A DNA stretch of 64,000 nucleotides from a virus (IMGVR_UViG_2926558313_000004:1-64000); one strand, 5' to 3'. Positions 1,020-63,364 are shown, counted from the first letter of the stretch. Numbers and translations: made by a program. Notes: generated by a model not told the origin, from the letters alone.

Positions 1020-1126
1020 ATTGAACCTCCCTTAAAAGTTGGATTTTATTGAAATATTAGGTCTCAAAAACCCTTATATATCAACGTTTTTTTATGTGTG
1101 GTATTTTTCAATTTATCATTTATGTA

Positions 1127-2278
1127 TTAAATTAAACTACTTTTCTTCATTTCTTTGAAAATAGCTTCTGCAACATTTATTACAATGCTATTACCAGCTT
1201 GTTTATAAAGCTGTGAATCAGATCTATCTTTACCTTTATAGAATTCTTGATTTAATGATTCTTTAGCAGTATTAAAATCATTATCTGTGAATCCCATTAG
1301 TCTCCAACATTCTTTAGGTGTTAATTTTCTGATTGCAAAATTATTTTCTAAATATAACCCTGTTTTTCCACCTAACCCTCCTCCATTGGCGGTCTGAGAT
1401 GCTGCGATTCCATTTGAATCATATACACGATTTCCTTGGGGATAATTTCGACTTAAACCCTTACCATCACCAACCCAATCTTTTTCACCAATACCGCCAA
1501 CAAAATTTAATTTGTTTTCTTCTTTCTCAATTACTTTTGGTTGCCTATTTCCTCCTTGCATAGTTGTTAGAGTTGGAGATAAACCTTCCGATGAATAAAC
1601 TCGTTTAATTACATCTTGACCTTTGATATCTAACTCGCCAACAACTTCAATGATCTGTTTTGGTTGTTTATAATCCCTTGCCAATAATGTACCCATCACA
1701 CCTTCTGTACCATATACAATATCGCTTTGACCAATTGTTCTGAACTCTGGAGCAGTTGTGTCTACCGTATTCGGATTATATTTTTCATTAAATTTAAAAC
1801 GTTTTTGTACTTCTTCACTTAAATAGTATTTATCTCCAATCTGCTGCTCAAGTACATCTTTTAGGCGAATCCCCTCATCTTTTCCAACTGGGAAGGTAAA
1901 TTCATTTGCTTCAATATCTTTTCTAATACTGATAACAAAAACCCGTTCTCTATTTTGAGGAATACCAAAGTCTTTTGCATTTAGCACTTCATAATATGTA
2001 TTGTATCCTAACTCATCTAGCATATTGATCCACTTATCAAAATCATCTTTAAATTTCCTTCCTATTAAATTCTTAACATTCTCTGCAATCATATATTTTG
2101 GCTTCTTCGCTTTTGCTATTTTCATAGCTTCCCATAATAAGCTTGAACGAGTATCGCTATTCTCTGAGAAACCATTCTGTCTACCTGCAACTGATATATC
2201 CTGACATGGAAATCCGTAAGTCATTAAATTAAAATCAGCAATATCATTAGGGTTTACTTTAGATATGTCACCTAAATT
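1127..2278 (-). CDS. DNA (cytosine-5) methyltransferase, C-terminal part (motifs IV-X and TRD region), separated from its N-terminus by an inversion
   Basis: GFPCQ (IV), ENVKN (VI), PQNRERVF (VIII), RKLTPKECWRLMGF (IX), KQAGNSI (X); the open frame extends upstream as NLGDISKVNPNDIADFNL to 2278. Confidence 0.95.
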   Translation of the reverse strand, partial: NLGDISKVNPNDIADFNLMTYGFPCQDISVAGRQNGFSENSDTRSSLLWEAMKIAKAKKPKYMIAENVKNLIGRKFKDDFDKWINMLDELGYNTYYEVLNAKDFGIPQNRERVFVISIRKDIEANEFTFPVGKDEGIRLKDVLEQQIGDKYYLSEEVQKRFKFNEKYNPNTVDTTAPEFRTIGQSDIVYGTEGVMGTLLARDYKQPKQIIEVVGELDIKGQDVIKRVYSSEGLSPTLTTMQGGNRQPKVIEKEENKLNFVGGIGEKDWVGDGKGLSRNYPQGNRVYDSNGIAASQTANGGGLGGKTGLYLENNFAIRKLTPKECWRLMGFTDNDFNTAKESLNQEFYKGKDRSDSQLYKQAGNSIVINVAEAIFKEMKKSSLI

Positions 2279-2505
2279 AGAATTTTTATTGAAAAAGAAG
2301 TCTTATAAAACAAAAATAAAAATATAAGGAGTTGTTTATTATAGGAAATTTAAAAGTGTTGTCTTTGTTCAGTGGAATTGGCGCATTTGAAAAAGCTTTA
2401 TCCAATTTGGGAATTGATTTTGAATTAGTCGGATTCAGCGAAATAGATAAATATGCCATAGAATCTTATTGTGCCATACATAACACTAATAAAAATTCTA
2501 TTTTA
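2273..2505. other. Inverted DNA segment bounded by inverted repeats (intragenic inverton)
   Basis: Perfect 13-bp IR TAGAATTTTTATT (2278-2290) / AATAAAAATTCTA (2488-2500), 17/18 when extended; re-inversion fuses the two MTase halves in frame. Confidence 0.9.
2332..2499 (+). CDS. N-terminal fragment (motifs I-II) of the C5 methyltransferase, in inverted orientation
   Basis: LKVLSLFSGIGAFEKAL...VGFSEIDKYA gives SAM-binding motif I (FxGxG) and motif II; RBS AAGGAG at 2326-2331. Confidence 0.93.
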
Positions 2506-2513
2506 TTAATCTC

Positions 2514-2696
2514 TTATTTTTGCCTTTTGTTACTGTCATCCTTCACTCTGCTATAAATATCGGCTCGCCATCCCTTGGTTTCATATCCTTCTTTTACCAA
2601 CTCAGCACCAACAATATATCCACTATTAGTTAAAGCATTTACTAAATCTTCCTTATTGCTATAGCCCCTAATATTTAATGAAATTAACTTGTCCAT
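2514..2696 (-). CDS. hypothetical phage protein
   Basis: ORF with GAGGTG RBS. Confidence 0.6.
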   Translation of the reverse strand: MDKLISLNIRGYSNKEDLVNALTNSGYIVGAELVKEGYETKGWRADIYSRVKDDSNKRQK

Positions 2697-2803
2697 AAAA
2701 AATCACCTCTTTTATTTAAATTCATTTTAGGATCTATTATTTTACACTTACCTTTTTAAAGTGTAAAATAATAACAAGTCATATTCGACATATTTTTATT
2801 GAT

Positions 2804-2830
2804 GAGGGGAGTACTCCCCTCCTTTTTATT
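2804..2830 (+). terminator. Intrinsic terminator-like hairpin
   Basis: Perfect palindrome GAGGGGAGTACTCCCCTC followed by CTTTTTATT on the plus strand. Confidence 0.6.
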
Positions 2831-3048
2831 TTGTTTACTCAATTCCTAAAAAGTCAAACTCCCCATCTAAATTAATCACCTTATGTAATCCAAACCACTC
2901 TATTTCACTCTCCTGGACAAGATATGTATCTATATCCTTCCATTCAAATATCCTTTTAGCTATCATTTCAGCATGTTCATGACTAAAAGCTCTTATAAAT
3001 GTAGTATTTGAGTCGGATTTTACTTTATAATAGTTCATAATAGCTCCT

Positions 3049-3558: not shown

Positions 3559-3590
3559 TTAATTTCTCCTCTTTGAATAAAACAGGAATT

Positions 3591-4415
3591 TTATGTAGCC
3601 ATAATTCTACTGTCTTGAATTTTATGTAGATTTTTTTCATTTGTTATATATTTATTTTTAAACCATATTATACTTTTATTTTTGTTTTGTTTATTGAATT
3701 CATCCGTAATTTCTTTTTCTTCATATCCTAATTCATTTAAATGGTTAATAACTTTTCTATAATATTTTTCATCGTTTATACTTTCATACATTATTGCTAA
3801 TCTTACTAGTAAACCAATCGAATGATTATGTTTGACATATTCCAATCCTTTTTCATATTCTGGATAAGGAAGTTCTTTTAATTTAACTTTATGATTTTTA
3901 TCTATTTGATATATGTATCTATAAGTTTTAACGTAGAATGCTTTTAACTTATCGTCTAAGTATCTTCTGTTTTTTTTTAAAAATCCTTGAGGTCTATTCG
4001 TACATTCCAATGGAACCTTATGAAAAACTTCACCGTCATCCATGTCTTCGAAAAATAAGCTTTTTTCATGACCAAAATATTTAAAATTAGACGCTTTGTA
4101 GATTGTACCGCATCCTAATCTTCCATCAGCAAAACTCTGCACATATTTTATATGAGGATATTTCTTCTTGATTATTTTCAAAGATGAGGATATTAGAATT
4201 GACTCTGCATTCTTGACCAGTTCGTCATCAATCCACATCCTATTTAGTTCGATAACACTATCCATACCTAATTCTGTAATTTTTTTATGTGACTTGGTGT
4301 TCATTAAATTTCCAAACACAGCCCCGCCTAATAATCTATTATCCTTAAAAATGCCAATATTTATCTTCCCGAAAGCCGTATTCCATTTCTTTGAATAGTG
4401 ATTGTTTATCATCAT
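3591..4415 (-). CDS. mom: Mom-family (GNAT) adenine-modification enzyme; true start probably near 4490-4496
   Basis: NHYSKK, ELNRMW, NAESILIS, QSFADGRLGCGTIYKASNF resemble phage Mu Mom-like proteins; frame stays open to an AGGAGG RBS at ~4499-4504. Confidence 0.75.
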   Translation of the reverse strand: MMINNHYSKKWNTAFGKINIGIFKDNRLLGGAVFGNLMNTKSHKKITELGMDSVIELNRMWIDDELVKNAESILISSSLKIIKKKYPHIKYVQSFADGRLGCGTIYKASNFKYFGHEKSLFFEDMDDGEVFHKVPLECTNRPQGFLKKNRRYLDDKLKAFYVKTYRYIYQIDKNHKVKLKELPYPEYEKGLEYVKHNHSIGLLVRLAIMYESINDEKYYRKVINHLNELGYEEKEITDEFNKQNKNKSIIWFKNKYITNEKNLHKIQDSRIMAT

Positions 4416-4542
4416 TTCTTTAGCGACTTTATAATCAATTTCCTTAATTAATAACCTTCCATTTAGTTTAGTATTTTTAACTATCTCTACAACAATCTCC
4501 TCCTATTCTTTAAAATAAAACTTTTAATTAAATTTATTTTAA

Positions 4543-4752
4543 TTATTTTGATTGCTCAAGCAACTCTTCATAATCATCTTTATGTATTAACACATAATCA
4601 TCTGGTTTAATGGTTAATGTCGTATATCCGCTATTACTAACTAAGTTAAATTCATGTTCATTTATCTCTACTTCACTAGTCTTTATATCAATATCAAATG
4701 CAGAATCTAGATTGCAGTCTAATAGTTCAACTATTAATTCTTTTACTGTCAT
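4543..4752 (-). CDS. hypothetical phage protein
   Basis: ORF with RBS; MTVKELI N-terminus common in phage proteins. Confidence 0.6.
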   Translation of the reverse strand: MTVKELIVELLDCNLDSAFDIDIKTSEVEINEHEFNLVSNSGYTTLTIKPDDYVLIHKDDYEELLEQSK

Positions 4753-5400: not shown

Positions 5401-6233
5401 TTGATCACTCCTTGTATAAAATTTTATTTATTTACTTTTCATTATCTTTCTTCCATTCTAAGAACTTCTTCCTATTTTTAATGTAGGATATAAAGTAAGC
5501 TGAAGCTTCTGTTCTCCGATAAATAACTTTATTAAAAAGAAACCAAACAGGATATAAAAGTAAGCAAACTGTTACTAAGCATCCCATAAAAATAATGAGA
5601 GCTGCTGACAAGTAAGTGGAGTATGTGAGCATGTTTATAATAAAATTGGTCAAAATCTTAAACCTCCTTCCTTTATAAAATTGTTCTTTTATCTAAGATC
5701 ATATTTCTCATCTGATTTCCATATCACCGTATATCCAACTTCTTGAGTAACTGTTACTAATTCCTCACTATGCAGCTTTCTAAGGAAATCTCTTAGATCA
5801 CTAATGTCGCAGCAATACTTTGTATGAATGTATCTCATTTCTTCCTCCTTTCAGTTTATCGTTTATTTCACTAAGTTTTGAACTATTCATCAAAAGTAAC
5901 TGCCTCTGCTTTTCCTTTAACCACTTGGATAGCATCTTTAATACGTCGGATTAAAGGCTGCTTCAATGGCTTTGCTACAACATATCTTCCGTTCTTAATC
6001 CTAGTGTTATGAAATAATTCATTAGCTTTTAACATACAAACCTCCTCACTTCGCATTTTTATTCTTACGTTCAATAAAAACTAAATTTTATTGAATATTG
6101 ACCTTTTTTCATTAAATTTAATTTAAATTGACTAAATTAATAAAAATGGGCTAAAAACCAACATTTCTTCAATTAAACAAATATTAACCTTCAAAAAGCC
6201 TGTAATAAAAGGATTTTTTAGCTTTATTTACGC

Positions 6234-6710
6234 CTACCGAATTCTTAACGACTTTGTTTGTTTGATTGCTGCTCCTTCAACCTCTTTACCTTCTTTAAGA
6301 TCCTTTAAAAGAGTCGTTTTATCTAATTTAGATGGTTGAGGTTTGAAATAAATTTTAGGTATTTTCTTTTCATTTAATACCTCAACACTAGGAGGATTAT
6401 TTTGCATAGATGTAGTAAGGATAGCACCCTTAACTTTATCTAAATTTAATTTTTCTAACTCGTACTCTAAATAATTTTTTAATCCAGTAACTTTATTTTC
6501 AAGCGCCTTTCGACGTTCAGATAGTCGTTTTTCTTCGGCTTTAATAACTTCAGCTTCTCCATCTAACGTCTTAATGAGCTTTGCTGTATTCTCAATTTTT
6601 ACTTCAATTGCATCCTCAAGAGATTTCAAGGTGTCTAAAAATGATTCAGAATCATTCTCTGCCAATTCTAAAACTTGTTGATACGCATCCGTTAATTCGT
6701 AAAGCTTCAT
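6234..6710 (-). CDS. Siphovirus Gp157-family protein
   Basis: MKLYELT...NNPPSV...GAxxxQxxSLRIR signature. Confidence 0.88.
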   Translation of the reverse strand: MKLYELTDAYQQVLELAENDSESFLDTLKSLEDAIEVKIENTAKLIKTLDGEAEVIKAEEKRLSERRKALENKVTGLKNYLEYELEKLNLDKVKGAILTTSMQNNPPSVEVLNEKKIPKIYFKPQPSKLDKTTLLKDLKEGKEVEGAAIKQTKSLRIR

Positions 6711-7992: not shown

Positions 7993-8012
7993 ATTTCACC
8001 TCATCATTTATT

Positions 8013-8711: not shown

Positions 8712-8727
8712 AACACTCCTTATGTAA

Positions 8728-19175: not shown

Positions 19176-19479
19176 TATATTCCTCTCATTTTCACGATTG
19201 GTCGTGACCCTTTTATGTTACAAGATTAATATTTTTTACTTGACTCATTACTTAAACTTATTCATTAGAGCAGTAAAGTTATTTTTCACATTCACCGTTC
19301 TCACCCCCCTTTCATAAAATCACAATTTTATATAATTTAATTTATTTTATTTATAAAGCATGTAAATTATCAATCTATTAAGAACTATGAATATTTTTTG
19401 ATTCTAATTTCACTATCCTAGTAACTGTAGACCTAGAATGACCCTCCTTCAAGATACATATTTATTATTTCTTTTCGCC

Positions 19480-31876: not shown

Positions 31877-32183
31877 AATCTATTCCTCCTTTTACTATTT
31901 AACTTATAATCATAGTACCATAACATTCAATGAATGTATATAATTATTTTTATTTTATTTATTTAAAAGTCACCTTTTATTAAATGGTCTTTACTATCAC
32001 AATAAATTTCTTCAGCCCAATGCTCGATGGAATACTCTGTAACTTGATTTGGATACTTCTTTATTAAAGTTATCAAACTTGAATCGTAAACCATTTTCTC
32101 AGCCTGTCGTTTAGGCACACCGAACATTTCTTGAATATCTAATACAACACAATCTATAAACTTGCTTACGCTTTCTTGTTGCT

Positions 32184-34555: not shown

Positions 34556-37500
34556 CCCCTATATCATTCTTCTTATTAATTTATTTAACTTCACTCTCTT
34601 TTTAAAATAAGCGATTTCTTCTTCGGTAGAGCTATAATTAATTTATTTCTTTTATTTAGATTTCTTCAAACTTAACTTCATTCACCTGCTCCACTGGTGT
34701 CATCTCTGTGATAGTAGTACTTCTAACAAATAATTCAATTGTCTCATAAAATTCCGATTCTACATTATATGTAACCAAATTTAAAATTGCATATCCTCGA
34801 TCCCTATCATAAATAACTGTATGTAACTCTTCATGTGAATTAATCAGAAAACAACCTTCTCTAAAAAGATCTTTATTCGTTGAGTCATTTCTCAAGATTG
34901 AATATTTCATTTGTAACAACTCCTTAAAACTCTTCTTTTATTCAATGAATACTTCTGGAAATAGCTCTTTAACTGACACCTTCGTTGATGCGCCATCATC
35001 ATCCGTTATATAAATACCAGTCTCCCCTTTTGGAACATTAGTTTTTACTTTTATTCCATAGGACTCTGCAGATTTCAACATATCTTCCTTGATAATTTTA
35101 AAATCATTCATATGAATTATTCCCTTCTCAAATACTCCTTTTAAATTGAGTCTAAATCAAAGTCTGCATATTCACCAATCAACTTCCCATTTAAATAAAG
35201 TTCTGTTGTAAATAACATCTGTTTAAGTTGAATATCATTTTCTCCTTTTATGACTACTAACTCGAAGTTAGAAGGTTTGTCACTAATTGAAACTCCATTT
35301 ACTCTCAACGTTTGAATAAACCATTTATCTTTTGAATTTAATTCTGCTGTCATTTAATCACCACTCCATTCTCCATATACACCAATTTCTTCTCCCGCTG
35401 ATCCTTTTGCCACGCTGATTGATTTGTGTATTCTGGCTTAATTGGCTGCGCTTTTTCATATTGTGAATGTCCGACTTCTAAGTGATTAAAACTTAATTTA
35501 TTTTCTTTTGTTTTACGATACCACAGTGTTACTGGCTCCATTGGTCATCACTCTCCTTATTCAAATTGATTAAAGCGTTTGATAAAGAATGGATGTTTTT
35601 CCTTCATCATTTTTTCTTTTTCAAATTTTATAATCAAAGGTTTCCATTCTTTAAAATAAGCAAATAAAAACACAGCAATACCAATGACTAAGAATATTGG
35701 TGATACTACATATTTCATAAATGTTAAATCTAATAATGGTTCGTCATATAATCTAACTGTCAAGATTAAAAATGAAATTATTGACATTAGAAATCCCGCT
35801 CCGACTATTTTCAATAATGCTTTTTTTAGAACGATCATATCTCGAATAAATTTACTCATTTCCAACCCCCGCTCAATTAAAAAATATATTTTAATCAACT
35901 TTATTTTCAATTTACAAGAATACGCAATTCTTCCAGACTCATCTGATTCACTTTCTTATGCGCTTGCTCAAGCATCTCTTTCATTTCTTTCTTATAAGAA
36001 ACATTCTTTTCATATTCTTCTTTAGATAACCACAAACGATATGAACATCCGTCTGGAATTCCATATTGAACTTGGTGTGTCTTTTGATCAACTTTATAAC
36101 GCACTTTAGACTTTTCATAATACCAAATATATGCGCTCGTTTTATTCGCTTCTAATACGATCATTTCTTCAAGTTTCTGCTCGTGATCAATATCTCCCCA
36201 AAATTTACTCACTGTTTCGAGCCATACTTTTTGTCCAACCTGTAGAGGTACTTTTTTAGACATTTTGTATTATCCTTTCTCAATTATTTGAATGTTGCTT
36301 TTTAATTCTCTTACCATAAAACTTCACAAAGTCCTCAACGCTCATTTTTTGCGTTACGAGTTTACCACCCATATATAACTCTTCAAAGTCAATATAAATT
36401 TCCCCATTCTGAATATATGGTAAGGTTTGAGCGACTATTTCATCTTGACAATCTACCTCCTCCAAGATCAAATCATATAAAGTAGATAACATTACTTTTA
36501 TAGTCTCATCATATTTTTCTAGCAGATCATTTATATCTTTTGTGACTTCTTGAATATTCAATAATATCCCTCCAAAGTTTCACAGATTATTTTATTTGTG
36601 GAATAACCTTGTCTAAAACTTTCTGTAGCACCTTATCAAGATAATCCAGCAAATCCTCTAATTTATATGCGGCTATTGTTAGCAGAAATAAAGGCAGCCA
36701 TATGGGACTCGTTAGTATCAAAACAAACAATCTCACTTTAAGCATAAGTCTATGTGATTTTTCCGTATAAAATCTACTTACACCTTTTAGATCGTGCCTA
36801 CTCCTCATTCCTTCAATTCACCTCATTTCAATTTTAATTTTTTTAATAAATAATCACCAAAACTTCCACCATTTTTTATTGTGAGTTTTAACTTGAGATA
36901 TTTCATTATGCTTTTCATGACGCATCATAGAAATAAATTCATCAATAGCATCTTCTTTCGCATTTAAATTTATTTCTTTAATTATTTTGTCTGTATGATA
37001 TGTAATTGTATTATCTAGTCCGTACATAACATCTTCAATAACCACCTCATCATTATTAATGTTAACTTTGTTTCCCTTTCTAAATTTAATGGTCATATCC
37101 TCTTCATGAAAAACTAACCTTCCTTTTAACCTGTAGTATTCCATAGGAAACTTCATTGTAGATCCCACTGGTCTAGAAATGTTAAGATATTCTTCACGAA
37201 GTCCAAAATCATCAGTTGTAAACGTCGCTCTATTTCCCATCATCCATTTATTCTCAATTACTTTACCTGTAAAATATGATTTTATTTTAAATACACCTCA
37301 ATTCAGATTCTAATAAAACAGGCATTTTACACAATAACTAAAAGTTTTTTCAGATTTTAAAATCATCAACAATACCTATTCTCGAACTCCCTGACATCAT
37401 TGAAAATTCTTTTCCATGATGGTGACGTTGGCTCAAAACATTTCTCTAGTCGTCTAACATTACTTTCTTGCCTTCTTAGCTCATCTTTCGCTGGTATTAA

Positions 37501-40750: not shown

Positions 40751-42230
40751 TCTTTACTTCCTCTCTTCAACTTTTTAAAAGTCTTTTCATTTATTTAATC
40801 ATCCCAAAATTTATTTCCTTTAATGATGTGCTCCACAATAATTTTCACAATAATCGGAAACCAAAACAAGGTCACAAATGAGTAAACAGTTGCTAATATT
40901 TTTTTATCCCCAATCAATTTCACTAATAAATTCAAACTATCCAAGAGGTTTGATTCGAGTTTATCTAATTCTTTGCCATTCTCATACTTAATTATAGTGT
41001 GATCCATTACTTTTACTATACATTCTGACATTACAATCCCAAAGAAAAAATATCCACCATATATAATACTGATCATGTGACAACCTCCTCCGTATTCATC
41101 TATATAGGGTATTCATTCTAATTAAGAATTATTAATAGTTGTAAGGAATGGTCGCATTTAAAGAAAATAGTGAATAACAGAAACATTTTTTAATTTTCTA
41201 TCCCTTACTTCTCCTTTCATTAAAAGACCGTTTTTAATTAAATATATTCCCCTGCCGTATAGTTTTCAACGATTCCTTTCTCAGTCAAATCCAACATAAT
41301 TTTTTCAACTTTGTCTTTTACCGTCAGAGCGAATTTAAAATTTGGGTCTTGTGATAAGTAATATTGATAATCATAAGGTTGTAAAAAGTTTTCATCTAAT
41401 ACGTCAATTTTAAAACTACTATCTTCTTTTTTAACTGTGAGATTGAATGTAATATCCTCTTCAACTGTTTTACAATAATGCCAATATCCTTTTCTATACT
41501 CTGTGAAGGACAATTCTCTCATTTGCATATCATTTAATATGTTTACTTTCATAATTTTACTCTCCTTTAGAAAATTATTTAAATTGTAATTCCCCTTTAA
41601 AATAATTGGATAAAGCTTCATGAATATCAATACAGCTTACTTCTCTGCTCTTTTGTTCTACTTTTAAATTACCTGTTATCATTTGTTCATCATCATAAAG
41701 AATTTTAAAGTTAACCATATCTCTATATTTACCAGTAACATCACATAAAACAGTATTCACCTGATTGATAGTAATATAACCTTTCATATTCCCTCCTATG
41801 ATTTTTTTGATTAAAATGAGAATATTATATTATTTAATTTATTTCTTTACTTCTTCTCTGTTTACTTCTATTCTCCACGCTTTATTCAGATCGCTAAAAT
41901 TTCTAGTGATCATTTCTCCAAATATAAGATGTCTGTCGCTCCACCCCTTATTAACTTCATTATGTAACTGTTCTTTGATAACTGTGGCATCATTATAACC
42001 TTTATGTAAATTCGCTTTAGGATTCCATTCTTTATACCAATACCTTAATTCAGAAAGAGAATTTTTATTCCCTATACGTTCTAATGCATCACATAACAAT
42101 TTTTTAAGCGCTCTTTCTTTTCTAGTCAAACCAATCATGTTTATTTTATTTTTATTATTTATTTTATTTAAATTCTTTTTCTGTTTTTCAGTTAAATTAA
42201 ACTCTTTAGATGTAGGAGAGATTACATTAT

Positions 42231-45204: not shown

Positions 45205-46179
45205 CTAAATTTCGTATAACTTCTTGATGTTTTCTATGTTGACATCCTCTTTGATGCCAATAAGGTTGTAATCCATCTTGCCTTGCAGTTTTGATTTTTT
45301 ATGCCCGAAATTTTGAACAATTGTTCTCAAGTCGTTATTTGTTAGCTCCCCTGTTTCTTCATATATATCCTTTCCCACTTTTATCATGCCACTTCTTGCG
45401 ATATTTGTCGGCGTGAGATAAGGATAGTCAAAAAACTTTTTAAGCATTTTTACTCTAGTATAAAGTGTCATATTTCCGACTGGTGCATTTTCATCTAATA
45501 CCCGACCATTATCAATAGATCGGATAATAAAATCATTGCGTATTAATTTCTTTTCTGGATTTGCTCGTTGAAAAACGGATTCTCCGTTATTAACAATGTA
45601 TACAGATTCTTTATAAGCTTCCGTAATTATTCTTAAACACCTATCACTTACTTTTACCTCCCTTTCCATCTCTCCTCTAACTTTTATAATATTATTATCA
45701 AAGTCTATGTCTTTATAATGTAAATTTCTAATCTCACTCAGTTGTGATCCTTTCAATCCTTCAAATAGCAACCGGAAAACAACCTTGTCTTGTCCATTAA
45801 CTAACTTCTTATCTTCTAGTTCTGCCAACTCTTCTTCAGTAAGAAACTGCTTTTTGCTATGGTCAATTAAACGGAACAAGGAATCTCTAGTTAAATTTGC
45901 AATTGGATTAATGGAGCTATTAGAATATCCATGAGCACTAGCCCAGTCTATATAATTTTTAAACACATTTGCTGCCATAGCTATAGAGCCTAATGATGGC
46001 TGAGCCATGTCTCTTAAGGTATCTTCAATTTCTGCTCTAGTAAAAGAATATAGGTCTTTCTGGAGCGCTCTTTCATTTCTTTCAGCCCCTCTTAGCTTGT
46101 ATCTATAAATAACTGCAGTATCTGCATCATAATTTTTTAAAAAAGCTTCTTTGATTTTTTCGTTGTACAAATTAGACAC
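45205..46179 (-). CDS. catalytically degenerate tyrosine-recombinase-fold master repressor (SPbeta YopR/MrpR-like)
   Basis: MYNEKIKEAFL N-terminus, LLFEGLKG..LSEI, PTNIARSG lacking R-HxxR; synteny with yopP/yopQ-like genes. Confidence 0.8.
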   Translation of the reverse strand: MSNLYNEKIKEAFLKNYDADTAVIYRYKLRGAERNERALQKDLYSFTRAEIEDTLRDMAQPSLGSIAMAANVFKNYIDWASAHGYSNSSINPIANLTRDSLFRLIDHSKKQFLTEEELAELEDKKLVNGQDKVVFRLLFEGLKGSQLSEIRNLHYKDIDFDNNIIKVRGEMEREVKVSDRCLRIITEAYKESVYIVNNGESVFQRANPEKKLIRNDFIIRSIDNGRVLDENAPVGNMTLYTRVKMLKKFFDYPYLTPTNIARSGMIKVGKDIYEETGELTNNDLRTIVQNFGHKKSKLQGKMDYNLIGIKEDVNIENIKKLYEI

Positions 46180-47608: not shown

Positions 47609-48682
47609 TTATAAATTCGAATTGAGGTTTCTTAGTAATATAATTTTCGCAACTTTATTACTATTAATTAAGTCCAATAACTCTTCTTTACTTAGCGATT
47701 CTAGAGCATCGCTGTTAAGAAATTTATCGAAATCTAACACACCTATTCTCTTGTATTTATTTTCTTTTATATATCTTTTTGTGACATTGAAATCTGAGTG
47801 ACCTGCGAATTCCATTGTCGCATGAGGATCTTTTGAGTTTTCATAAAAAATAGTAATCGCAGTTCCACGTATGCTATGGAAAGAGACATTTCTTTTTTCT
47901 GAAATATTCATTTTGATTTTAAGTTGATTCATTAGTTTCGATATATGATTCTTGTTAAACGGAAATACTACCTCGTCATTAACTTTATTATCAATTAATT
48001 CTTGAAAAAAGTCTTCATCTACATAATGAATTTTCCTCCGCTGCCCTTTTCCTCTTAATTCGATTTCATAATCTCCTTCTCTTGTGAGAATAAAATCGCT
48101 CCACTTCAACTTTAAAATTTCTTGCTGTCTCAGTCCGGTGTGTAAAGCGAACTTAATCAGCAATCCTTGAATAATTCGATTTTTAAATCTAGGCATTCCC
48201 TCTTTGACCATTGGGGCAATCTTTATCATTTCTTCTACTTCTTCCTTATGGAGTAAGCCGTAATTTACTTCTACGCTCTTAAGCTTTTGCATTTTACTAA
48301 TGAAGCTAATGTCTATATCGGCTAATAAACCAAATTCTATCTTCCTGCTATTTATATAGCTAAACAATCCAGTTATTGTCGTTAACTTTCGTTTTATTGT
48401 TTTATTAACCGAACCTTCATCCTGTAAATGAGCAATAAATTTATCAATATCGCTAACAGTAACTTTAAAATCATGTTCGATTAAATTTTCCAGCTCTTTT
48501 CCTTTTGTGATTTTAAAGAAATGTCTTATGTCACCCAAGTAGTTTTTAATTGTATTTTCGGATCTTCCGTTGCTCTTTAAATACATCATAATTATCTCTA
48601 AACAATTAACTTTATTTATATGGACTAATTGTAAGCTCATCTCTTTCATCCTCCTCAAAATTATATTAGGTTTATTATACAA
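47609..48682 (-). CDS. tyrosine recombinase/integrase with intact catalytic residues (SPbeta YopP-like)
   Basis: SENTIKNY SAM-like domain; TGLRQQE (R), RGKG (K), HSIR, AGHS, TKRY. Confidence 0.9.
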   Translation of the reverse strand: MYNKPNIILRRMKEMSLQLVHINKVNCLEIIMMYLKSNGRSENTIKNYLGDIRHFFKITKGKELENLIEHDFKVTVSDIDKFIAHLQDEGSVNKTIKRKLTTITGLFSYINSRKIEFGLLADIDISFISKMQKLKSVEVNYGLLHKEEVEEMIKIAPMVKEGMPRFKNRIIQGLLIKFALHTGLRQQEILKLKWSDFILTREGDYEIELRGKGQRRKIHYVDEDFFQELIDNKVNDEVVFPFNKNHISKLMNQLKIKMNISEKRNVSFHSIRGTAITIFYENSKDPHATMEFAGHSDFNVTKRYIKENKYKRIGVLDFDKFLNSDALESLSKEELLDLINSNKVAKIILLRNLNSNL

Positions 48683-48702: not shown

Positions 48703-50565
48703 TACAATAATTTAATTATATTTGTTTACTTAGTAAATTCATATACCCTTTTATCATATTTCTTCTCGCTTCGCTTTTATCGATATTTCTTTCTTTTATG
48801 TTTCTCTCCGTATTTCTCCAGTACATCCCCTCATTCCCCGAATTAACAACGCCCTTCATAGAAATTTCCTGATATTGTTTTTCAATTTTTTTATGTACTA
48901 AATTAACTACTTTATTTTCCATTTTATTTACCTCCACTACTATATATACCTTATTATATTTGTTTTAAACATAAATATTACTTTTTTTCGTTTGACTATT
49001 TCTGACCTTTATCTGATTATAATATAACATATTGGATAGTGGAAAGTAAATAAAAATATATGACAAATAGCCTTATTTTTAATATTTTTTAAAAAAATAA
49101 GGCTCAATTACTTATTATTTTTTTATTTTTTATTCAGTAACTCGTTTTCTATATTCATAAGTAATTAGTTTGTCATTATGATCTATATCTATTTTTACTT
49201 TATTTCTAAACTCTTCTTTAATATCTTTTATAATTATTTTCATTTCCTTTTTGTTTTTATATGGCTGTGCTCCCATGTATATTAGTTTTCTTTTATTCAT
49301 CTACCATCATCCTTTCTTAAAATGTGTAATTTATTGAATTAATTTATTTTTCTATTATTTCTCTAGATACTCTCTTGCTTCTCTTATTATCTCTTCATAT
49401 TCTTCGTCCGAATACACTCCAGATTCTCCAATTTCTTCATTTGCTAAAATTTCTATTAATTTATTTTGATACTTAGCGGGTAAATACTTTAAAACATATT
49501 CACGAAAAAGTTCATCAACCTCAGCACCATCAAATGCTCCAGAAAGTCTTTTTAATATTTCTTTTCGTTTTCTACTCATTTACTCCCCTTTACTCTTCCT
49601 ATTGGTTAGCTTTGTCTTTTAAATCTTCATAACATAAGATGTGTACCCACTGTTCAAATCCATCATATATTCCGGCTTGATCGATCATCTTATCTGTTGA
49701 ATCTTCTTTGCTACAAAATGCACATACCTTTTTATTCATTGCAAGTCCTCCTATTTCAGTTTTAAATCTCAGCTAAATTATGATTATCGACAATCCATCT
49801 TTTTTCGCCTTCAAATTCTTCCCCATCCACACGCTCAATGATCATCCTATTATCAAAAGCACTAGCAGAGCCGACAATATAATATTCTGATTCCGTGTCT
49901 ATTTGAGGCTGTTTGTTTGTCATAATCCCATAACCTAATGATCTGTTACATTTATATTTTCTTTTCTCCATTTTCGCCACCCTTTCTCAGTGAACTACAT
50001 GACCGAGAAGCTTATTAAGAACTTTCTCGTTCCCAAAGTAAATCTTTTAAGACTTTTCCTTTTTCGTCAAGCTCGTACTCAAATTCACTTTTGCATTTAC
50101 TACATTCAAGATAATCCATCGTAGTATCGTACTCTGAACCCATAGTGTGAATTTTTCTTTTAGATAAGGTGTTTTTTGATGTCAAAGGTATTCTATATAC
50201 TTTTTCAGTTACCTTATAAAGACTTAGCTCTCCATCTTTACATTTAGGACACTTCATTCCATCCCTCTCCTTTCTATATCACATTATCACTCTTTAATTC
50301 ATTAAAACTAAAATTTTAAACACAATTATTATCCTAGCTCTTTTAAATTTCTCATTCCAATTCATACATACTTCTAATATCTATACAGATTTCATGTGCC
50401 TTATTTAATTGTTTTTGCGCCTGCTCAATTGAATTAATATCCTGATCATTCATGATATTTTGGTTCGCATACCCAATTAGAAATTGAATTTCTTCGACTT
50501 TCTTTAATATGATCTTTGTATTCCCTCTAGCTTTCATTCTCCCCCACCTTTACTCTTAGCTTCTA

Positions 50566-55500: not shown

Positions 55501-58500
55501 AGTTAGCCCTTTATTCAAATTAACGCCCTCTAAATTCATCTTTTTTGTATATGTAAATCCTTCTTCTAAGTCTGCTTCTACGCATTCTTTATATTTCAAT
55601 CCTCTATAGCTTTCATCATTAAACGGTATCTTATATAAATAACCCTCTACAAAATCATAAGCTCGTTCCTCAGTTTTAAATGACTCTACTGGCATGGATG
55701 AGAACTCCATATAGACATCATAATATCCATGTGCCTCTACAACCTTAGTATTATTAATATTAGCAATTTGCTCTCCTTTCATTATTATCACCTCTCCGAA
55801 TAAGTCTTTTCTTCTTTCTTGAATTAGCCACTTTTACGAAGTGGTCAATTTCATTTTGATCATTTGCTTCAATAGCATTATTATATAATTCAATTTGTTT
55901 ATCTGTTAAATATTCGACCACTTCTTCACTCATATTTATCACCTAATTATTTTATATTTGTTTATTCATCCGCACACTCGAAATGATTTTCTTGCTTCAG
56001 CTACTTCCATCATACGCATTAAGACATCTACAAAATCACTATCTGACCTTGAATGATCTTCATAAGCCATAGCAAGTTCTAACTGCTCTTTTGGTGTCAA
56101 ATAAAACATTAATCCGTTAAACTTTTCATAAGTTTCAATATATTCATTATACGCATCGATTTCAATTTTCATCTCATCAACACTCATCTTCTCTCCCCCT
56201 TGCAATTTATTTCCTTAAGTTAATAATAACATGGTTTCCACATCCTAACAATAAAAATCTTAACATAATTTAATTTATTTTATTTACAAAATTCCAGTTC
56301 GAATTTTCGTTCGCTGTTATACGGTTTCGCGCTGTCTAATATCATTCAAAATTTCGTCTTTAGATCTTCTTACTCCAATTTCATTTATAACTTGAATTCC
56401 CAGAGAAGTAAAAACTTCTTCGAGAATAGGGAAGTCAACTTCATCATACGAAAACTTTCCATCGGTCGATGCATTTTGAATGTTGCTTAATAAACGTTTC
56501 AATAAATCATCCTTACTAATTCGACCGTCAACCATCCAAGCACTATAGAAGATATTACCAATAAATTTTCTTAATTTTATTTCTTCCATAAGCTTCAAAT
56601 CGATCATTTTTTGATAAATATCAACTACCATACTCAGGATATTATATTTATCAATATGATTTACTGGAATGTCATATAATTCAGAAGCAAAATACTTTAA
56701 GTCTTGATCATAGTTAATTCGTCCGAAGTGTCCTTTGGTGTATAATATAAGCTGCTTTTCAAAATGATTAAGTTCTGTTTTCATGTTACACCACCCTTTA
56801 ACTATATTTATTTTTAATTTCTACCATAACTAACATTGCATAGGTGAAATAGGATTTATCACCGAACATTTTATACAGCGTCATATAATCATTATATTTA
56901 TCAAGAAGATCATCAATGCAGTGATTGTTAGATAGTTCAAGTTTAATTATCATATCAGCATTCACCAGCCTCATAATTTTATTAATTTGCTCCTGAGAAA
57001 AAGCTTCTGGTTTATTATAGTTATTCATTTTTAAGCTCCTATCTGCCTTCTTAAAATCAGCATTTTATTAAGTTTCATAGTCTCCACCTAAAATTTCATC
57101 TTTGGTGAATATAGGCAAAATCCATAGCAACCAATATGTAGTACTTTTTCTTTTCTGTTTTCCATAATATCCAACCTTTTTAAAATAATATTTTTCAGTC
57201 TTTCTTATCATGTTATCAACTCCTTTAAAGTTTTTTAATGCCAATAAATTCATCTGGATAAATATATTCACTTAAATATCTTTCTTTATCCCATACATCC
57301 AATCTGTCATAACCCAGCCCTTCATTCTCTACTTCTCTAACTTCCACTATGTCACCGTTAGACCATAGCATCTCTCCCTGTCTAATTGCATTCACATTAA
57401 TAATTTTTATTTTTTCTCCTTTTTTGAAATTAGTAATTAACATTTTTGTCATCCCCATTATTAAATTTAATTGAAATTACATTTTTATTTAAAGCTGTTC
57501 AATAAGTTAACTTTTCTTTCCGCTTCTTCACTGCTCGCATAGCTATAAGGAGAATGACCACTTTCAGTATGATAGATATGATAGGCTCCGGTTTCATCTT
57601 CAAACTCATAATACCATTCTCCAATTTTCAATTGCTCTTCTGTTAATTTCATTAGATCTCCTCCTCTAAAATCCCTATTTTATGTAGCTGCTGTTATTCA
57701 ATCTCACTTACTGATTCAGTCCAAAAACAAGACCCTGTATTGTTGAAATAAATGTCAACCTTTTCATTCTTAAAGAATTGTATTAGTAAATCATAAAAAT
57801 CTGTCGTTGGGTTAATAATCTGGTCTTCCATATTCAAATATCTATCTTTAACCAACTTAATATCTACACTACTATGATTGGGGATCAGTCTTATACTACT
57901 TCCTGACTGTTCCATTAAATTGTTAAATTCATTAATCATTTCTTTTGAAATAACGCTCATCATTATTCCCTCCTGTTTTATCCAATCATTTTGATTATAC
58001 TATGTCTTGAATATGTTCACATCGATAATTTCAGCAATAGTATGTAGCTGCTGTTATACACTTAATGATCGAACTATTCATTAACCTTTTTAAACCTTCC
58101 ATTAATGTACATTTCTTCTCTTACATATCTTCTTGCTGATTGATACGAGGGAAACCAAAGGGCGTTTGTTGTTGAATCACTCCAATGGTTAGTGCAGATT
58201 GTAAAAAAGTCTTTTCTTACTTCTGTTATCGTGACAGTTTCTCTATCAGTTTCAATTCTCCATTTATTCAATTTTTACACCCTTTCTTAATGAACATAAT
58301 CACTCTTATGTTCAATTACTATAAAATGATTCTTTTAATTAAATTGCTCAGACTTCTTTTTAACTGTTAAAATAAACTCTCCTGCAACTCCTTGCTCGTA
58401 AAAATAATTTTCAAAATCATCTAAGGTGTCAATTAATGTCATAATCATATGTTGTTCAGGCAACATTTCTATTTCAAATTTTACATGTCCTTCATCATTC

Positions 58501-60693: not shown

Positions 60694-60803
60694 ATCATCC
60701 TACCTCCATTTATTTTATTTTTATTAATTTCGTTTTTAATCTTTCCAGCAATCCTTCGATCAAGCTGTTATACACTATAACTAGTCGAAGGATTAAGCAA
60801 AAA

Positions 60804-61370
60804 TTAAATATCTAACTCTTTAACTTTGATCGGATTACTTGCGACAACTAACCGCTCACTAAGAGCTACGTCTGTTAAGTCGCCATCTTTTTTATAATCA
60901 AAATCTTTAATTGTAACAGCCGTATACATATCGCACTCAGTAATCAAGTGTGGAGGCAGTGTGCCGACAACGTGCTTGCCTTTAATATCCTCTGCTGTTA
61001 CATTCTCAAAAACGGGCGCTAACCACCAGTCTTTTTTAAGAATATCAATCGTGCCTTTATGACGGCTTGCGATCACTGTTTTATCTGGATTGGAATACTT
61101 AATAAGATCAAGCTTATCTACAACCTCAATTTGATATTTGCGTACTGGTAAATCAGCATCAAAAATCTCTTGAGATGTGTTAAATATTGTGCCTCTCGGC
61201 AGTTGCAGTGCATAAAACTCTGTTACTCCTTGCTCTGCTAAAATAGCAGGTGATAGCGACGATAAAACAACCTCTTCTGTTCCTTGACTGAAATCAGATA
61301 ATCCCTTAATAGCTTCAAATCCACTTGCTACAACCTTTTTTTCTGATAATAATTGTTTAATAGTTTTCAT
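60804..61370 (-). CDS. Csx16-like putative ring nuclease
   Basis: VIASRHKGT...VVGTLPPHL...DGDLT resembles the Csx16 SRHxG / GTLPxHL motifs. Confidence 0.6.
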   Translation of the reverse strand: MKTIKQLLSEKKVVASGFEAIKGLSDFSQGTEEVVLSSLSPAILAEQGVTEFYALQLPRGTIFNTSQEIFDADLPVRKYQIEVVDKLDLIKYSNPDKTVIASRHKGTIDILKKDWWLAPVFENVTAEDIKGKHVVGTLPPHLITECDMYTAVTIKDFDYKKDGDLTDVALSERLVVASNPIKVKELDI

Positions 61371-61744
61371 TTTAAATTCTCCTTTTTTTATATTTTTAAT
61401 TTTATTTTTCCAGTGATTCTCTTAGCTGCCTGTTAATCAACTAAGAGAATCTGACAAGTATGAATTAGATATTCTCTACTCTGATTGGATTATCCCAATC
61501 ACAAGCTTCTGACTCGTCTGAAGTATCAAAATTAATTGTTTCCCAGTAGATCATATATTCCTTATCATTTTCATCGACAGCATGAGCTTTATACTCACTA
61601 CCATCATCTGAAACATATGCATCTTGCAATGTGCGATACTCTTTACCCTCAAATTCTACAATGGTTGAATTTCCGCTATTTAATTCTTCAAACTTTTTCA
61701 TAATGACTTCCTCCTTTTGTTTTTGTTTCCTTATCTTTAACTTA

Positions 61745-61773
61745 ATTTTATACTAAAAGTAGTATAAAGTCAA
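61745..61773 (-). promoter_or_regulatory. sigmaA early promoter
   Basis: TTGACT-N17-TAAAAT. Confidence 0.7.
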
Positions 61774-63364
61774 TAAATTATTATAATTATTTTTATTTTA
61801 TTTATAGGAAATGTGTTTTAATAATGCCTGTTCCAGCCATGTAAAATAATCCTGCTAAAACAATACCTGTCAATATAATAATAGACCAATCAGTTTTATC
61901 TTTATTTTTAATTTGTTTATGTAGCACAATTATCAACCCCATATCATTATTTTAGTTTTATATTGTGAATGAAAAACCTTCCCTCTTACGTTCAGATAAA
62001 ATAGTCATTAATACCGAATCTTTCTTTATAACCCACTACGTTCAGATAATAAAGTCACCTATTTACTTTTTAAAGATCGGAAAGTAACTATGAGATGCGA
62101 ACCCGCAACGTCCAACCTCTAAAACATATCCATTGTTATTTTCCGTTACACAGATCTCCTTATAAGATGAGACATATTCCATTTTCTCTTGTACTTGCTT
62201 AGATATAAAATACAATCCTTTTGAATTCAAATAATTACAAGCGTCCTCTGCTCTTTCAAAATAAAGTTCTCTCCCCCAGTCTTTTTTAAATACGCCAACA
62301 TTCATACCGTTAATTATTTCTCTCATTTTTTACCTCCTGTTATTTAATGATTTAATTATCGCTCATTAAATCAGATATATCAATAGTATCCTCTAAATTC
62401 ATCAACCTGTCAGACATAGCACCCTCTAAATCGTGTTCATTAATCCCAGCTTTGAGTAGTCTTTTTTTTGATTACCTTTTGTTTTTCGAGGGATAATTGA
62501 GATATAAAGATTGTTTTGTTATACTCCATCTATTATAACTCCTTATATAATTAACTTTAAAAGATTGAATTTATCCGAATACAGTATTTATTATTTCCCC
62601 AGTTTTTACATTTAGGAATTTTTCGTTTTTATAATAATCTAAGTAAAACATTTTAATAAAACTTATACCTGTTTCCAAAAGCCCGAAATCATACACCAGA
62701 TTATCCACTTCAATTTTAATCTGATGATTATCTAAGTTGTAATTTATAAGCTTAATGTCTGAAGCCTCTACAAGTTTTTTAATAAACATTTTTATTCCTC
62801 CTTCCAACTTAAAATATTACTTTTATCCTAATTAGTTTTTAGGTGTATTTCTCCATTGTCACTAACCTTCAAAGTTGTAATTCCAACATACTCTAAAACT
62901 TCTACCTCTAACACTTGAAACATTTCTCCATTTGGATTACAAAATTTATCATTTACAATTCTCTCAAAATGTCTAATACTTCCGTTTTTCATTTCAACTT
63001 TAAACCTAACCTTATGTCCCTCAAATTCTTTTTGTCTGTTAACAAATTCATCTATGCTCATTTTCATTTCAATTCCTCCAATTTTTTTCATAAAAGGTTT
63101 ATTTTATTATAGCTTCCTATGCTTCTTGTTCTGTCCGAAAAACTGTAAATTCATTCCTAGTCTACTTTTATCTTTCTTCTTTTTTAAAAAATCTTTTGCA
63201 AGCTCAATTTGAGAAGGCTTTAACGCTTTAATAATTGGACTTTATTCATCTTTGATCGTCCGGCAATTCCTTTTTCCTTCGCTAGTTCATAAAGCTCTTT
63301 CATTGTCATATTAGATAGTTTTTTGTTATTCATTTTTATTTCCTCCCTGTTTATCTTTAATTTT

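Follow-up and report, generated by a model that had tools for sequence, protein, structure and literature searches.

A strict palindrome dispersed along gene borders as a candidate recombination core site in SPbeta-like and related large phages

A strict palindrome, TAAAA-N6-TTTTA, recurs along the gene borders of a 64,000-nt stretch of viral DNA (hereafter the window; about 31% G+C). On balance, we think that it probably serves SPbeta-like phages and related large Firmicute siphophages as the core site of a common site-specific recombination system. Perfect copies number 26 in the window, two more than a preliminary description had counted; 100 dinucleotide shuffles gave 1.63 on average and at most 5, none reaching 26. 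That description had called for a comparison of spacer lengths. When spacers from N0 to N15 were scanned, only N6 was enriched (26 versus 1.58 expected); N5 and N7 stood at background level in the window, and N13 (6 versus 1.59 expected) equalled the shuffle maximum.

The motif is restricted to phage DNA. Forty-three perfect copies are found in about 173 kb of prophage (C5 plus C35), spread over about 140 kb, versus 19 in the remaining 4.35 Mb. Enrichment of this palindrome extends to SPbeta (34 sites), phi3T, Geobacillus E3, a Staphylococcus SPbeta-like phage, C. difficile LIBA6276 and the B. anthracis phage Nate (22 copies versus 2 for a reversed control pattern), with 20-45 sites per genome in the enriched phages. 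One might suppose that DNA as AT-rich as that of the window would produce such a motif by chance between genes. This is refuted by the shuffles, by the spacing scan, by the rarity of the reversed control in motif-bearing genomes and by SPO1, SPP1, phage K and pW4, which have no motif enrichment even though phage K and SPO1 are also AT-rich; we regard the probability of a chance origin as negligible. We found no published description of the motif in the literature, and no close relative of the window phage; exchange of flanks is therefore known from the SPbeta group.

Twenty-four of the 26 perfect sites in the window lie outside predicted genes, and at 17 of the 26 an RBS-like word begins 0-16 nt past the site (Table 1). 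A stop TAA is common to the site and to the ORFs ending at 3591, 5689, 28091, 28346, 34938 and 58335 (perfect sites) and at 33733, 35141, 52934 and 62571 (one-mismatch sites). Perfect sites are absent between 6321 and 19315, among the replication genes, and between 41236 and 50303, in the lysogeny operon. The preliminary description had reported the placement at gene boundaries, all ten shared stops, the following RBS and the two empty blocks, and the coordinates bear it out on each. No site lies within 1.6 kb of the recombinase gene at 47609-48682.

Table 1. Motif sites and associated features of the window
Feature	Position	Strand	Remark
Perfect site, spacer GTTGGA (+ strand)	1033..1048		13 nt before start of ORF 798-1019(-)
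C5 DNA methyltransferase remainder	1130..2302	-	PF00145 profile positions 42-324, E 7.9e-66
One-mismatch site TAAATTAGAATTTTTA	2273..2288		within methyltransferase reading frame; inverted partner of 2490
Inverted segment between two same-spacer sites	2289..2489		holds methyltransferase gene 5' end, + strand
C5 DNA methyltransferase N-terminal piece	2332..2556	+	PF00145 profile positions 1-50, E 6.7e-9
Perfect site, spacer ATTCTA	2490..2505		inverted partner of 2273
Perfect site	3578..3593		TAA shared with stop of Mom-family gene 3591-4415(-)
Perfect site	4511..4526		upstream of Mom-family gene 3591-4415(-)
Perfect site	5676..5691		TAA shared with stop of ORF 5689-5838(-)
Perfect site	6075..6090		intergenic
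Perfect site	6306..6321		within predicted ORF 6234-6710(-)
Perfect site	19315..19330		directly downstream (sense) of A-tract repeat element
Perfect site	23618..23633		gene junction
Perfect site	23908..23923		gene junction; with 23618 flanks single ORF 23658-23879(-)
Perfect site	28078..28093		TAA shared with stop of ORF 28091-28309(-)
Perfect site	28333..28348		TAA shared with stop of ORF 28346-28657(-)
Perfect site	31964..31979		intergenic
Perfect site	34925..34940		occupies entire gap from stop codon to next RBS
Perfect site	35878..35893		gene junction
Perfect site	37314..37329		intergenic
Perfect site	41221..41236		1 nt past stop of ORF 41238-41630(-)
MrpR/YopR/SroF-family repressor, recombinase fold	45205..46179	-	PF22823, PF22822; PDB 9rd5 E 2e-43; context only
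YopP-family (Xer-like) tyrosine recombinase, candidate enzyme	47609..48682	-	PF00589 E 6e-18, PF02899
Perfect site	50303..50318		upstream of first small ORF of repressor operon
Perfect site	54260..54275		gene junction
Perfect site	54563..54578		gene junction
Perfect site	54933..54948		gene junction
Perfect site	57052..57067		gene junction
Perfect site	57667..57682		gene junction
Perfect site	58322..58337		TAA shared with stop of ORF 58335-58796(-)
Perfect site	62810..62825		gene junction
Perfect site	63091..63106		gene junction; with 62810 flanks single ORF 62828-63091(-)

The position matrix confines conservation to the 16 bp of the 5-6-5 element (TAAAA, six free bases, TTTTA); the flanks, outer arms included, are not conserved, and the matrix contains no -35/-10 promoter pattern. 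Sites with at most one mismatch number 59 in the window versus 30.8 expected. The one-mismatch copies listed earlier survive in part: individual copies at the ends of genes still appear to be real, while the class as a whole (33 versus roughly 29 expected) is not above chance. Enrichment of the perfect N6 sites next to one-mismatch copies near chance suggests an enzyme-like strictness. Among the 43 perfect prophage sites, position 6 is T or G in 34 and position 11 is A or C in 33, with no base-pair covariation between the two (complementary in 12 of 43 versus about 15 expected) and no compensatory changes supporting RNA pairing. The symmetry of the motif is two-fold at the DNA level. Were the motif to act at the RNA level, folding into a small AU hairpin or binding a protein upstream of the Shine-Dalgarno and thereby controlling intercistronic translation or mRNA processing, its fixed position between stop codon and RBS at many junctions of the window phage and of Nate would be accounted for. 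However, the hairpin is weak (MFE of 0 to -1.9 kcal/mol in 8/8 sites folded) with positions 6 and 11 unpaired, the motif is also found in a Geobacillus phage, and some copies, such as those upstream of SPbeta aimR and yorE, lie between terminator and promoter. The inversion and the reassortment of flanks described below would remain unexplained by an RNA role, which we consider very unlikely.

All 43 perfect prophage sites differ in their spacers. Uniqueness of the centre is uninformative by itself, as 43 sites would yield an estimated 0.2-0.5 collisions by chance. The single exception mentioned in the preliminary description holds up: sites 2273 and 2490 share a centre, and no other pair in 150 kb of prophage does. 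Site 2273 carries one mismatch; together the two form an inverted repeat of 18 nt (94% complementary, centre identical) and bound an inverted gene segment. PF00145 positions 1-50 are encoded on the + strand between the two sites, and positions 42-324 then follow on the - strand. Inverting 2289-2489 in silico restores a single 443-codon frame running through FSGIGAF...EID...GFPCQ. Both end points of the inverted 5' part of this C5 DNA methyltransferase gene lie in two motif copies. The inversion is likely an on/off switch, and it may be reversible.

Do gene exchanges between phages also end at the motif? The preliminary description had proposed looking for breakpoints in relatives, and in the SPbeta group (SPbeta, phi3T, Goe14 and SPR) homology blocks do begin and stop at motif edges. 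Homology breakpoints occur at 32 of 43 junctions with a perfect site versus 62 of 206 without one; for same-strand gaps of 20-90 nt the counts are 9/13 versus 13/60 (p=0.0016, p-values here being overstated when pooled because the four genomes are kin). Motif positions -1 to +1 coincide with 19 of 26 block starts and positions 14-18 with 10 of 31 block ends, and in eight further records homology to SPbeta stops 1 nt beyond the site at 116415-116430. Sixteen of 24 centres recur across genomes of the group. Among the 44 same-centre pairs, drawn from about 1001 cross-genome site pairs, the flanks differ on both sides in 18, on the left only in 11, on the right only in 6 and on neither side in 9. 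Identical sites therefore keep their spacer while the flanks on both sides reassort. Two observations count against recombination at the motif. The centre is included in 23 block starts, and in 15 block ends while left out of 16, so that it stays with the downstream gene oftener than with the upstream gene; together with the location just before the RBS, this fits a gene-linked regulatory element. In addition, 15 of the 16 recombination sites described for laboratory phi3Ts-SPbeta hybrids lie in ordinary homology (bioRxiv 10.1101/2020.05.06.055103).

The motif could instead be the binding site of a dimeric phage regulator, a silencer or roadblock between genes comparable to stoperators or KorB operators, with the recombination signature as a by-product. 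Stoperators are asymmetric, follow the direction of transcription and bind the phage repressor; the motif is symmetric. A catalytically idle YopP is one conceivable binder and the DndB/ParB-like YopQ another, and the short conserved patches at gene borders would guide relaxed homologous recombination, as proposed for the PeSLs of T4-type phages; SPbeta YorG is annotated as a Sak4-like annealing protein. Besides the tie between centre and downstream gene, such a regulator would fit the intergenic sites with their closely following RBS and the absence of the motif from the conserved replication and lysogeny operons. It would also fit the reported transcription in lysogens of yopP and yopQ, both in the repressor operon (bioRxiv 10.1101/2021.11.22.469490), the lysine that replaces the second catalytic arginine in SPbeta YopP, and the precedent of MrpR, described as a recombinase fold turned repressor (PMC10516654). 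Yet the inversion end points lie exactly in two 16-bp copies, which homologous recombination on 18 bp would rarely achieve. The strict keeping of 10/10 positions with almost no degenerate class is unusual for operators, and Nate has the motif but no YopQ match. The ten ChAP-seq peaks reported for MrpR all lie at SPBRE, which excludes MrpR only (PMC10516654). We consider a regulator of this kind unlikely, if still worth serious attention.

Alternatively, the motif could be the form taken in the window phage by SPBRE, to which the master repressor MrpR/YopR/SroF binds as its operator. An MrpR homologue is encoded in the window, and SPBRE, like the motif, is a dispersed intergenic repeat of SPbeta-like phages; its reader, like the candidate enzyme of the motif, has a tyrosine-recombinase fold. 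As described, SPBRE differs in being another sequence, asymmetric, monomer-bound and specific to each repressor type (PMC10516654; bioRxiv 10.1101/2025.11.27.690993). In SPbeta it is CAAATACAAAWAATATGTATA, read upstream of yonP, yonT, yonX, yopK, yopM, yopV and yorE, and in phi3T a monomer is reported to bind an asymmetric A-tract box of 26 bp (bioRxiv 10.1101/2025.11.27.690993). The palindrome, on the other hand, is identical across phages that share only 27-37% identity in MrpR, and SPbeta has both elements next to each other upstream of aimR and yorE. In the window phage, SPBRE has a better counterpart in a separate A-tract repeat adjoining sigma-A-like promoters. With a different sequence and a motif invariant across repressor types, identity with SPBRE is rejected as extremely improbable, and the repressor encoded at 45205-46179 is not the reader of TAAAA-N6-TTTTA.

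If the motif is a recombination core site, its enzyme may be a tyrosine recombinase, and possibly YopP. The inverted arms around a 6-8 bp centre expected of a core site are present as a 5-6-5 element, enriched at N6 only and symmetric at positions 6/11, and rearrangements end in same-centre sites both at the 2273/2490 inversion and in the reassorting flanks of the SPbeta group. The catalytic set R, K, H, R, H/W, Y is present in a co-encoded tyrosine recombinase, whose link to the site we infer. The ORF at 47609-48682, in the repressor operon, which the preliminary description had called a recombinase, encodes a YopP-family tyrosine recombinase with its catalytic residues (R, K, HxxR, H, Y) in place. 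Its only sequence match in the PDB is XerH (E 2.3e-8); this match covers the catalytic domain without the base-reading N-terminal domain, which counts against the assignment. We found a YopP-like gene in the window phage, the SPbeta group, E3, the Staphylococcus phage, Nate and PMBT69, and none in phage K or SPO1, both without motif enrichment. Also counting against YopP, LIBA6276 has no clear orthologue (its best match is the other recombinase type), and YopP of SPbeta, Goe14 and the Staphylococcus phage carries Lys in place of the second catalytic Arg, although SPbeta still has its 34 sites. A second tyrosine recombinase is encoded at C5:107841-108863.

Integrons consist of a tyrosine recombinase, IntI, with attI and attC sites, the latter being long imperfect palindromes that recombine in a folded single-stranded form. 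The phage sites resemble them in combining a tyrosine recombinase with arrays of small accessory genes and sites that abut stop codons; they differ as simple duplex core sites over the whole early region. The 16-bp element, with its weak hairpin and unconserved flanks, is not an attC-like folded site, and there is no single intI/attI/Pc platform, the sites being distributed over about 140 kb. Nor did circular cassettes show up in the fragmentary contigs of the one sequencing run that contains the DNA. Hence, of the original proposal, recombination sites are backed by the inversion and the SPbeta-group reassortment, whereas the integron-like label does not hold. Invertible DNA switches and shufflons use tyrosine recombinases, and heterospecific lox/FRT sites serve for cassette exchange. 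As in the former, inverted same-centre sites here flip a gene 5' end; as in the latter, differing centres would prevent cross-reaction. These are, however, single loci or laboratory designs, while the motif forms a genome-wide natural set.

The dif-like architecture suggested earlier matches that of difH (TGAAAA-N6-TTTTCA), the site of the single-recombinase Xer system XerH of Helicobacter and Campylobacter, which has the same palindromic A4/T4 arms and free 6-bp centre and in which an A4 to T4 change is reported to abolish recombination (PMC3325230). In the published account, XerH reads bases only in the inner 5 bp of each arm and leaves the 6-bp centre uncontacted (PMC5241119). The base next to A4 is G in difH and T in the motif; difH occurs once per chromosome and acts with FtsK in dimer resolution, whereas the motif occurs 20-45 times per genome, at gene borders and with individual centres. 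The pdif sites of Acinetobacter plasmids are likewise described as many Xer-type sites in accessory regions, flanking adaptive gene modules in varied contexts, but they are 28-bp plasmid sites used by host XerC/XerD, while the phages have recombinase candidates of their own and a 16-bp core (PMC6449649); unlike pdif modules, the motif sites keep a colinear order between relatives. PeSLs, too, are short repeats between small non-essential genes, and relatives differ there by insertion, deletion and replacement; they are described as promoter-plus-terminator cassettes acting through homologous recombination (PMC2839356), whereas the motif is a strict 5-6-5 palindrome and contains neither a sigma-70-type promoter nor a terminator stem-loop.

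Collectively, we favor a model in which two monomers of a phage Xer-type tyrosine recombinase, the YopP-like protein being the best candidate and the protein of C5:107841-108863 the second, would each bind one 5-bp arm. Strand exchange would proceed across the 6-bp centre and would require matching centres; because each site has its own centre, the genome would not scramble itself. Two same-centre sites in inverted orientation would flip the DNA between them, here the methyltransferase 5' end, and same-centre sites of a related co-resident phage would recombine, swapping the flanking genes while keeping gene order.

Perfect copies of TAAAA-N6-TTTTA occur 26 times in the window, as against a mean of 1.63 and a maximum of 5 in 100 dinucleotide-preserving shuffles. 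When spacers from N0 to N15 were scanned, N6 alone was enriched (26 vs 1.58 in shuffles), with two copies at N5 and none at N7, so the preference for N6 over its neighbours expected in the preliminary description holds. The 6 copies of TAAAA-N13-TTTTA (1.6 expected) equal the shuffle maximum of 6 and may reflect a weak secondary spacing or chance. With up to one mismatch allowed, the window contains 59 sites where 30.8 are expected, and the 33 one-mismatch copies are thus near chance as a class; the motif is strict. Given these counts, the view that the perfect copies are a product of chance is scarcely credible. All but two of them (24/26) lie outside predicted genes, as called by a crude ORF caller at a coding fraction of 0.81, and in 17/26 an RBS-like word begins 0-16 nt downstream. 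The ten stop codons first described as sharing the TAA of a site were all confirmed by coordinates, and the replication block and lysogeny region, said to be free of sites, indeed contain no perfect copy (6321-19315 and 41236-50303).

The window corresponds to G000:C5:3-64002 in the host genome assembly, where low-GC prophage DNA (~31%, vs 47% G+C for the host) occupies positions 1 to ~150,000 of contig C5 together with contig C35. This prophage DNA holds 43 perfect sites, compared with 19 in the other 4.35 Mb of the host genome, and their centres are distinct in 43/43. With one mismatch permitted, a single same-centre pair appears in 150 kb, 2273-2288 and 2490-2505, mutually inverted; the earlier observation that every spacer differs except in the pair bounding an inversion is therefore correct, with one mismatch needed for that pair.

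The motif is also abundant in other phages. In loci of ~40 kb, N6-specific local enrichment was seen in Geobacillus virus E3 (14 observed vs 1.6 expected), phi3T (9 vs 0.7), a Staphylococcus phage SPbeta-like locus (7 vs 0.9), C. difficile phage LIBA6276 (9 vs 1.9) and B. anthracis phage Nate (13 vs 0.6). Over whole records, counts of the motif and of a reversed control pattern were 34 and 2 in SPbeta, 30 and 7 in E3, 22 and 2 in Nate, 19 and 6 in LIBA6276, 17 and 8 in the Staphylococcus phage, and 8 and 1 in Lactococcus phage PMBT69; the corresponding values were 0 and 0 in SPO1, 0 and 2 in SPP1, 4 and 4 in phage K, and 2 and 1 in pW4.

The 2273/2490 pair makes up an inverted repeat of 18 nt whose arms are 94% complementary and lie 197 nt apart. 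Between the two sites, a plus-strand ORF aligns with positions 1-50 of PF00145, the profile for C5 DNA methylases (E 6.7e-9), and directly beyond the segment a minus-strand open frame matches positions 42-324 (E 7.9e-66). When the segment is flipped in silico, with the midpoints of the two centres as its ends, a single frame of 443 codons is restored, in which FSGIGAF, EID, six site-encoded residues, GDISK and GFPCQ follow in order. As the family match is split and the flip restores the frame, the sequence indicates that DNA inversion, at end points that both lie in copies of the motif, cut the 5' end of the methyltransferase gene off from the rest of it. Neither piece has lost its open frame, as would be expected if the event were recent or reversible. 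Nearby, a Mom-family protein (3591-4415, minus strand; PF25680, E 1.3e-52) is flanked by sites at 3578 and 4511, and its gene and the adjoining, candidate-switchable C5 methyltransferase make up a DNA-modification gene cluster. Elsewhere in the window, a 28-nt stretch at 62024-62051, with a partial copy at about 61985-62003, is one base off the CRISPR repeat of a ~100-repeat array in a genome of the same genus (G025:C135); it also matches a second genome (G047) and has no other occurrence in G000. One possibility is a solitary CRISPR repeat carried by the phage, perhaps as an RNA anti-CRISPR.

Megablast of window positions 1-20000 against phages gave no match, a DNA search of 49 genomes of the same family found short repeats only and no related prophage, and the window's MrpR homologue, searched against genome contigs and viral contigs, brought up no relative. 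Among the sequencing runs listed, none of RNA contained the sequence, and one of DNA (X1, 0.16 of words) yielded, over 44001-64000, only short contigs that were 100% identical and jointless. As these searches had found no close relative of the window phage, we used four public Spbetavirus records instead, comparing SPbeta 63-100 kb with the regions 20 kb either side of yopQ in phi3T, Goe14 and SPR. HSPs shorter than 120 bp, on the opposite strand or contained in others were excluded, as were HSP ends within 60 bp of a locus end or continued within 40 bp in both genomes; gene junctions were taken from a crude ORF caller and not from record annotations. Blocks of homology end at 32 of 43 junctions with a perfect site, compared with 62 of 206 without (genome by genome, 9/11 vs 17/48, 5/8 vs 19/63, 10/11 vs 12/47 and 8/13 vs 14/48). 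Restricting the comparison to same-strand gaps of 20-90 nt gives 9/13 vs 13/60 (p=0.0016, pooled over genomes that are kin and not independent). Of the 26 block starts in the neighbourhood of sites, 19 lie at motif positions -1 to +1; the 31 block ends comprise 10 at positions 14-18, 12 before the motif, 4 at positions 5-6 and 5 beyond these.

Two-thirds of the distinct centres (16/24) recur across genomes, in the same order. Same-centre pairs number 44 among ~1001 possible cross pairs, where by our own arithmetic chance would yield well under one; both flanks differ in 18, the left only in 11, the right only in 6 and neither in 9. The centre AGACTG has three different left and three different right flanks across the four genomes. 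In eight further records, homology to SPbeta breaks off exactly 1 nt beyond the site at 116415-116430. This perfect site (NC_001884; 16415-16430 in our locus record L021) stands at the yorZ stop and adjoins the terminator shared with yosA. Recombination in phi3Ts-SPbeta laboratory hybrids is reported to have taken place mostly in long homology (15 of 16 sites), which weighs against exchange at the motif; the one non-homologous junction is described as "following yosA" (bioRxiv 10.1101/2020.05.06.055103, Suppl. Table 1), which would lie near the site at 116415. Hyb2 and Hyb3 are 100% SPbeta over 115900-117000. Conservation of addresses between distant phage groups was considered and rejected, as 8 of 5020 centre pairs are shared, near the chance level (~2.4 on uniform odds). 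In these comparisons, shared addresses are confined to close relatives.

A different reading is that the motif is a gene-linked regulatory protein-binding site at which recombination is a by-product of short homology, as has been proposed for PeSLs in the portion of that work available (PMC2839356). Consistent with this, the centre more often goes with the gene downstream than with the one upstream, and the site hugs the RBS. Regulation accords poorly, however, with an inversion that has exact end points and with the near absence of degenerate copies, and we regard it as rather unlikely.

At the DNA level the site has two-fold symmetry: T or G occupies position 6 in 34/43 sites, and A or C occupies position 11 in 33/43. 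The two positions are complementary in 12/43, where ~15 are expected by chance, so there is no excess of pairing. If the motif were an RNA element, its arms should pair, but all eight folded sites gave only 0 to -1.9 kcal/mol and some copies are found in the space separating a terminator from a promoter, which makes that explanation very improbable. Together, these features point to a reader that is a dimer on duplex DNA.

In SPbeta, MrpR is reported to bind SPBRE, with ten peaks in ChAP-seq and a motif of 15 bp (PMC10516654, in part). The box that phi3T SroF binds is reported to be an asymmetric A-tract sequence of 26 bp, occupied by a monomer (bioRxiv 10.1101/2025.11.27.690993, in part). Read directly upstream of seven named SPbeta genes, SPBRE is CAAATACAAAWAATATGTATA, unlike the palindrome, of which the same 50 kb holds 16 perfect copies (1.05 expected); the two stand side by side upstream of aimR and upstream of yorE. 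The MrpR proteins of motif-bearing phages are only 27-37% identical to that of the window, and the motif therefore does not vary with the type of repressor. That the motif is SPBRE itself is thus most improbable. A separate repeat, AAAYAAAATAAATTAAATTA, lies on the sense (minus) strand 2-10 nt upstream of many TTGACA..ATACTAC..TATAAT promoters, with 77 sense and 27 antisense matches at up to 4 mismatches (raw counts). It is a better SPBRE analogue of the window phage than the palindrome, and it is probably an early-promoter family plus SPBRE/SroF-box analogue, or a UP element. Other candidates for the palindrome were rejected: a ComK-type box (A4-N5-T4), as N5 spacing is at background; a sigma-A promoter, as the -35 pattern is absent 17 bp upstream; and a host Xer/dif site, as the outer arms are not conserved. 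A promoter of the YonO RNA polymerase, for which one start site is reported upstream of yonK (PMC5467207, in part), was likewise set aside, no perfect site being found between yonK and yonN in SPbeta.

Features of the lysogeny operon and recombinase genes, and copies of the promoter-linked repeat
Feature	Coordinates	Strand	Remarks
YopP-like tyrosine recombinase	47609-48682	-	candidate enzyme
YopQ-like protein	46172-47551		34% identical to SPbeta YopQ; motif DGFHR
MrpR/YopR/SroF-family protein	45205-46179		PF22823, PF22822; PDB 9rd5, E 2e-43
Second intact tyrosine recombinase	G000:C5:107841-108863	+	late region; sole PDB match XerA
Large serine recombinase, 553 aa	G000:C35:21341-21784		end of C35
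IS200/IS605 element	42383-43925	-	TnpA 43527-43925, TnpB 42383-43525; just downstream of repressor gene
AAAYAAAATAAATTAAATTA repeat copies	811-830, 19333-19352, 20646-20665, 48708-48727, 56266-56285, 61784-61803, 63398-63417	-	also C5 66250-71341

The lysogeny operon has the SPbeta layout, and Geobacillus virus E3 has similar IS insertions near the homologous operon. The serine recombinase of C35 is probably the prophage integrase. Naming the binder by gene conservation failed, primase, helicase and YopP/Q/R-like genes alone recurring across the phage loci compared. YopP-like genes are present in the window phage, the SPbeta group, E3, the Staphylococcus phage, Nate and PMBT69, and searches of phage K and SPO1 found none. 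The window protein has a single PDB sequence match, XerH (5jjv, E 2.3e-8, catalytic domain), and R, K, H, H and Y are kept in 6/6 aligned family members, with the second Arg present in the window phage, phi3T and E3 and replaced by Lys in SPbeta, Goe14 and the Staphylococcus phage. Homologues of the second tyrosine recombinase were found in LIBA6276 and, weakly, in Nate, and in no other phage compared. The assignment of YopP as the enzyme is weakened by these Lys variants and by the want of a clear YopP orthologue in LIBA6276. XerH is reported to contact bases specifically only in the five inner base pairs of either difH arm and hardly to touch the 6-bp centre (PMC5241119); difH reads TGAAAA-N6-TTTTCA, and recombination is reported to be abolished when its four A are replaced by T (PMC3325230, in part). 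In each arm, a single base sets the phage motif apart from difH.

On balance, we lean towards the motif being a site-specific recombination site. A fuller model, possible rather than probable, is that SPbeta-like and related large Firmicute phages carry genome-wide "addressed" Xer-type sites, with arms identical everywhere and a 6-bp centre particular to each position, on which a phage-encoded, XerH-like YopP-family recombinase would act. Co-resident phages would then exchange accessory and anti-defence genes position by position, leaving gene order unscrambled, and inverted same-address pairs would serve as gene switches, here of a DNA methyltransferase. The integron-like cassette system first suggested is not borne out; the sites are better placed with Xer/dif-type multi-site systems such as the pdif modules (PMC6449649).

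A literature search for the motif (TAAAA-N6-TTTTA, TAAAANNNNNNTTTTA), its scope ending short of the original SPBRE description (reference 31 of PMC10516654) and the 1999 genome paper, returned one unrelated archaeal paper; the words palindrome and motif do not occur in the preprint on SPbeta relatives, and the site goes unmentioned in the SPbeta-phage literature consulted on MrpR, SroF and YopP/YopQ. New here are the inversion in the window, the negative-control phages and the separation of the motif from SPBRE, with which it might be confused. With a defined 16-bp site, YopP as candidate enzyme and a visible inversion, the proposal is testable in Bacillus subtilis with SPbeta and phi3T. It bears on the long-standing question of how phage genomes become mosaic at exact gene borders. 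If confirmed, it would provide a natural set of heterospecific recombination sites, give a function to YopP, which is conserved in a model phage family, and account for the movement of accessory genes between SPbeta-like phages.
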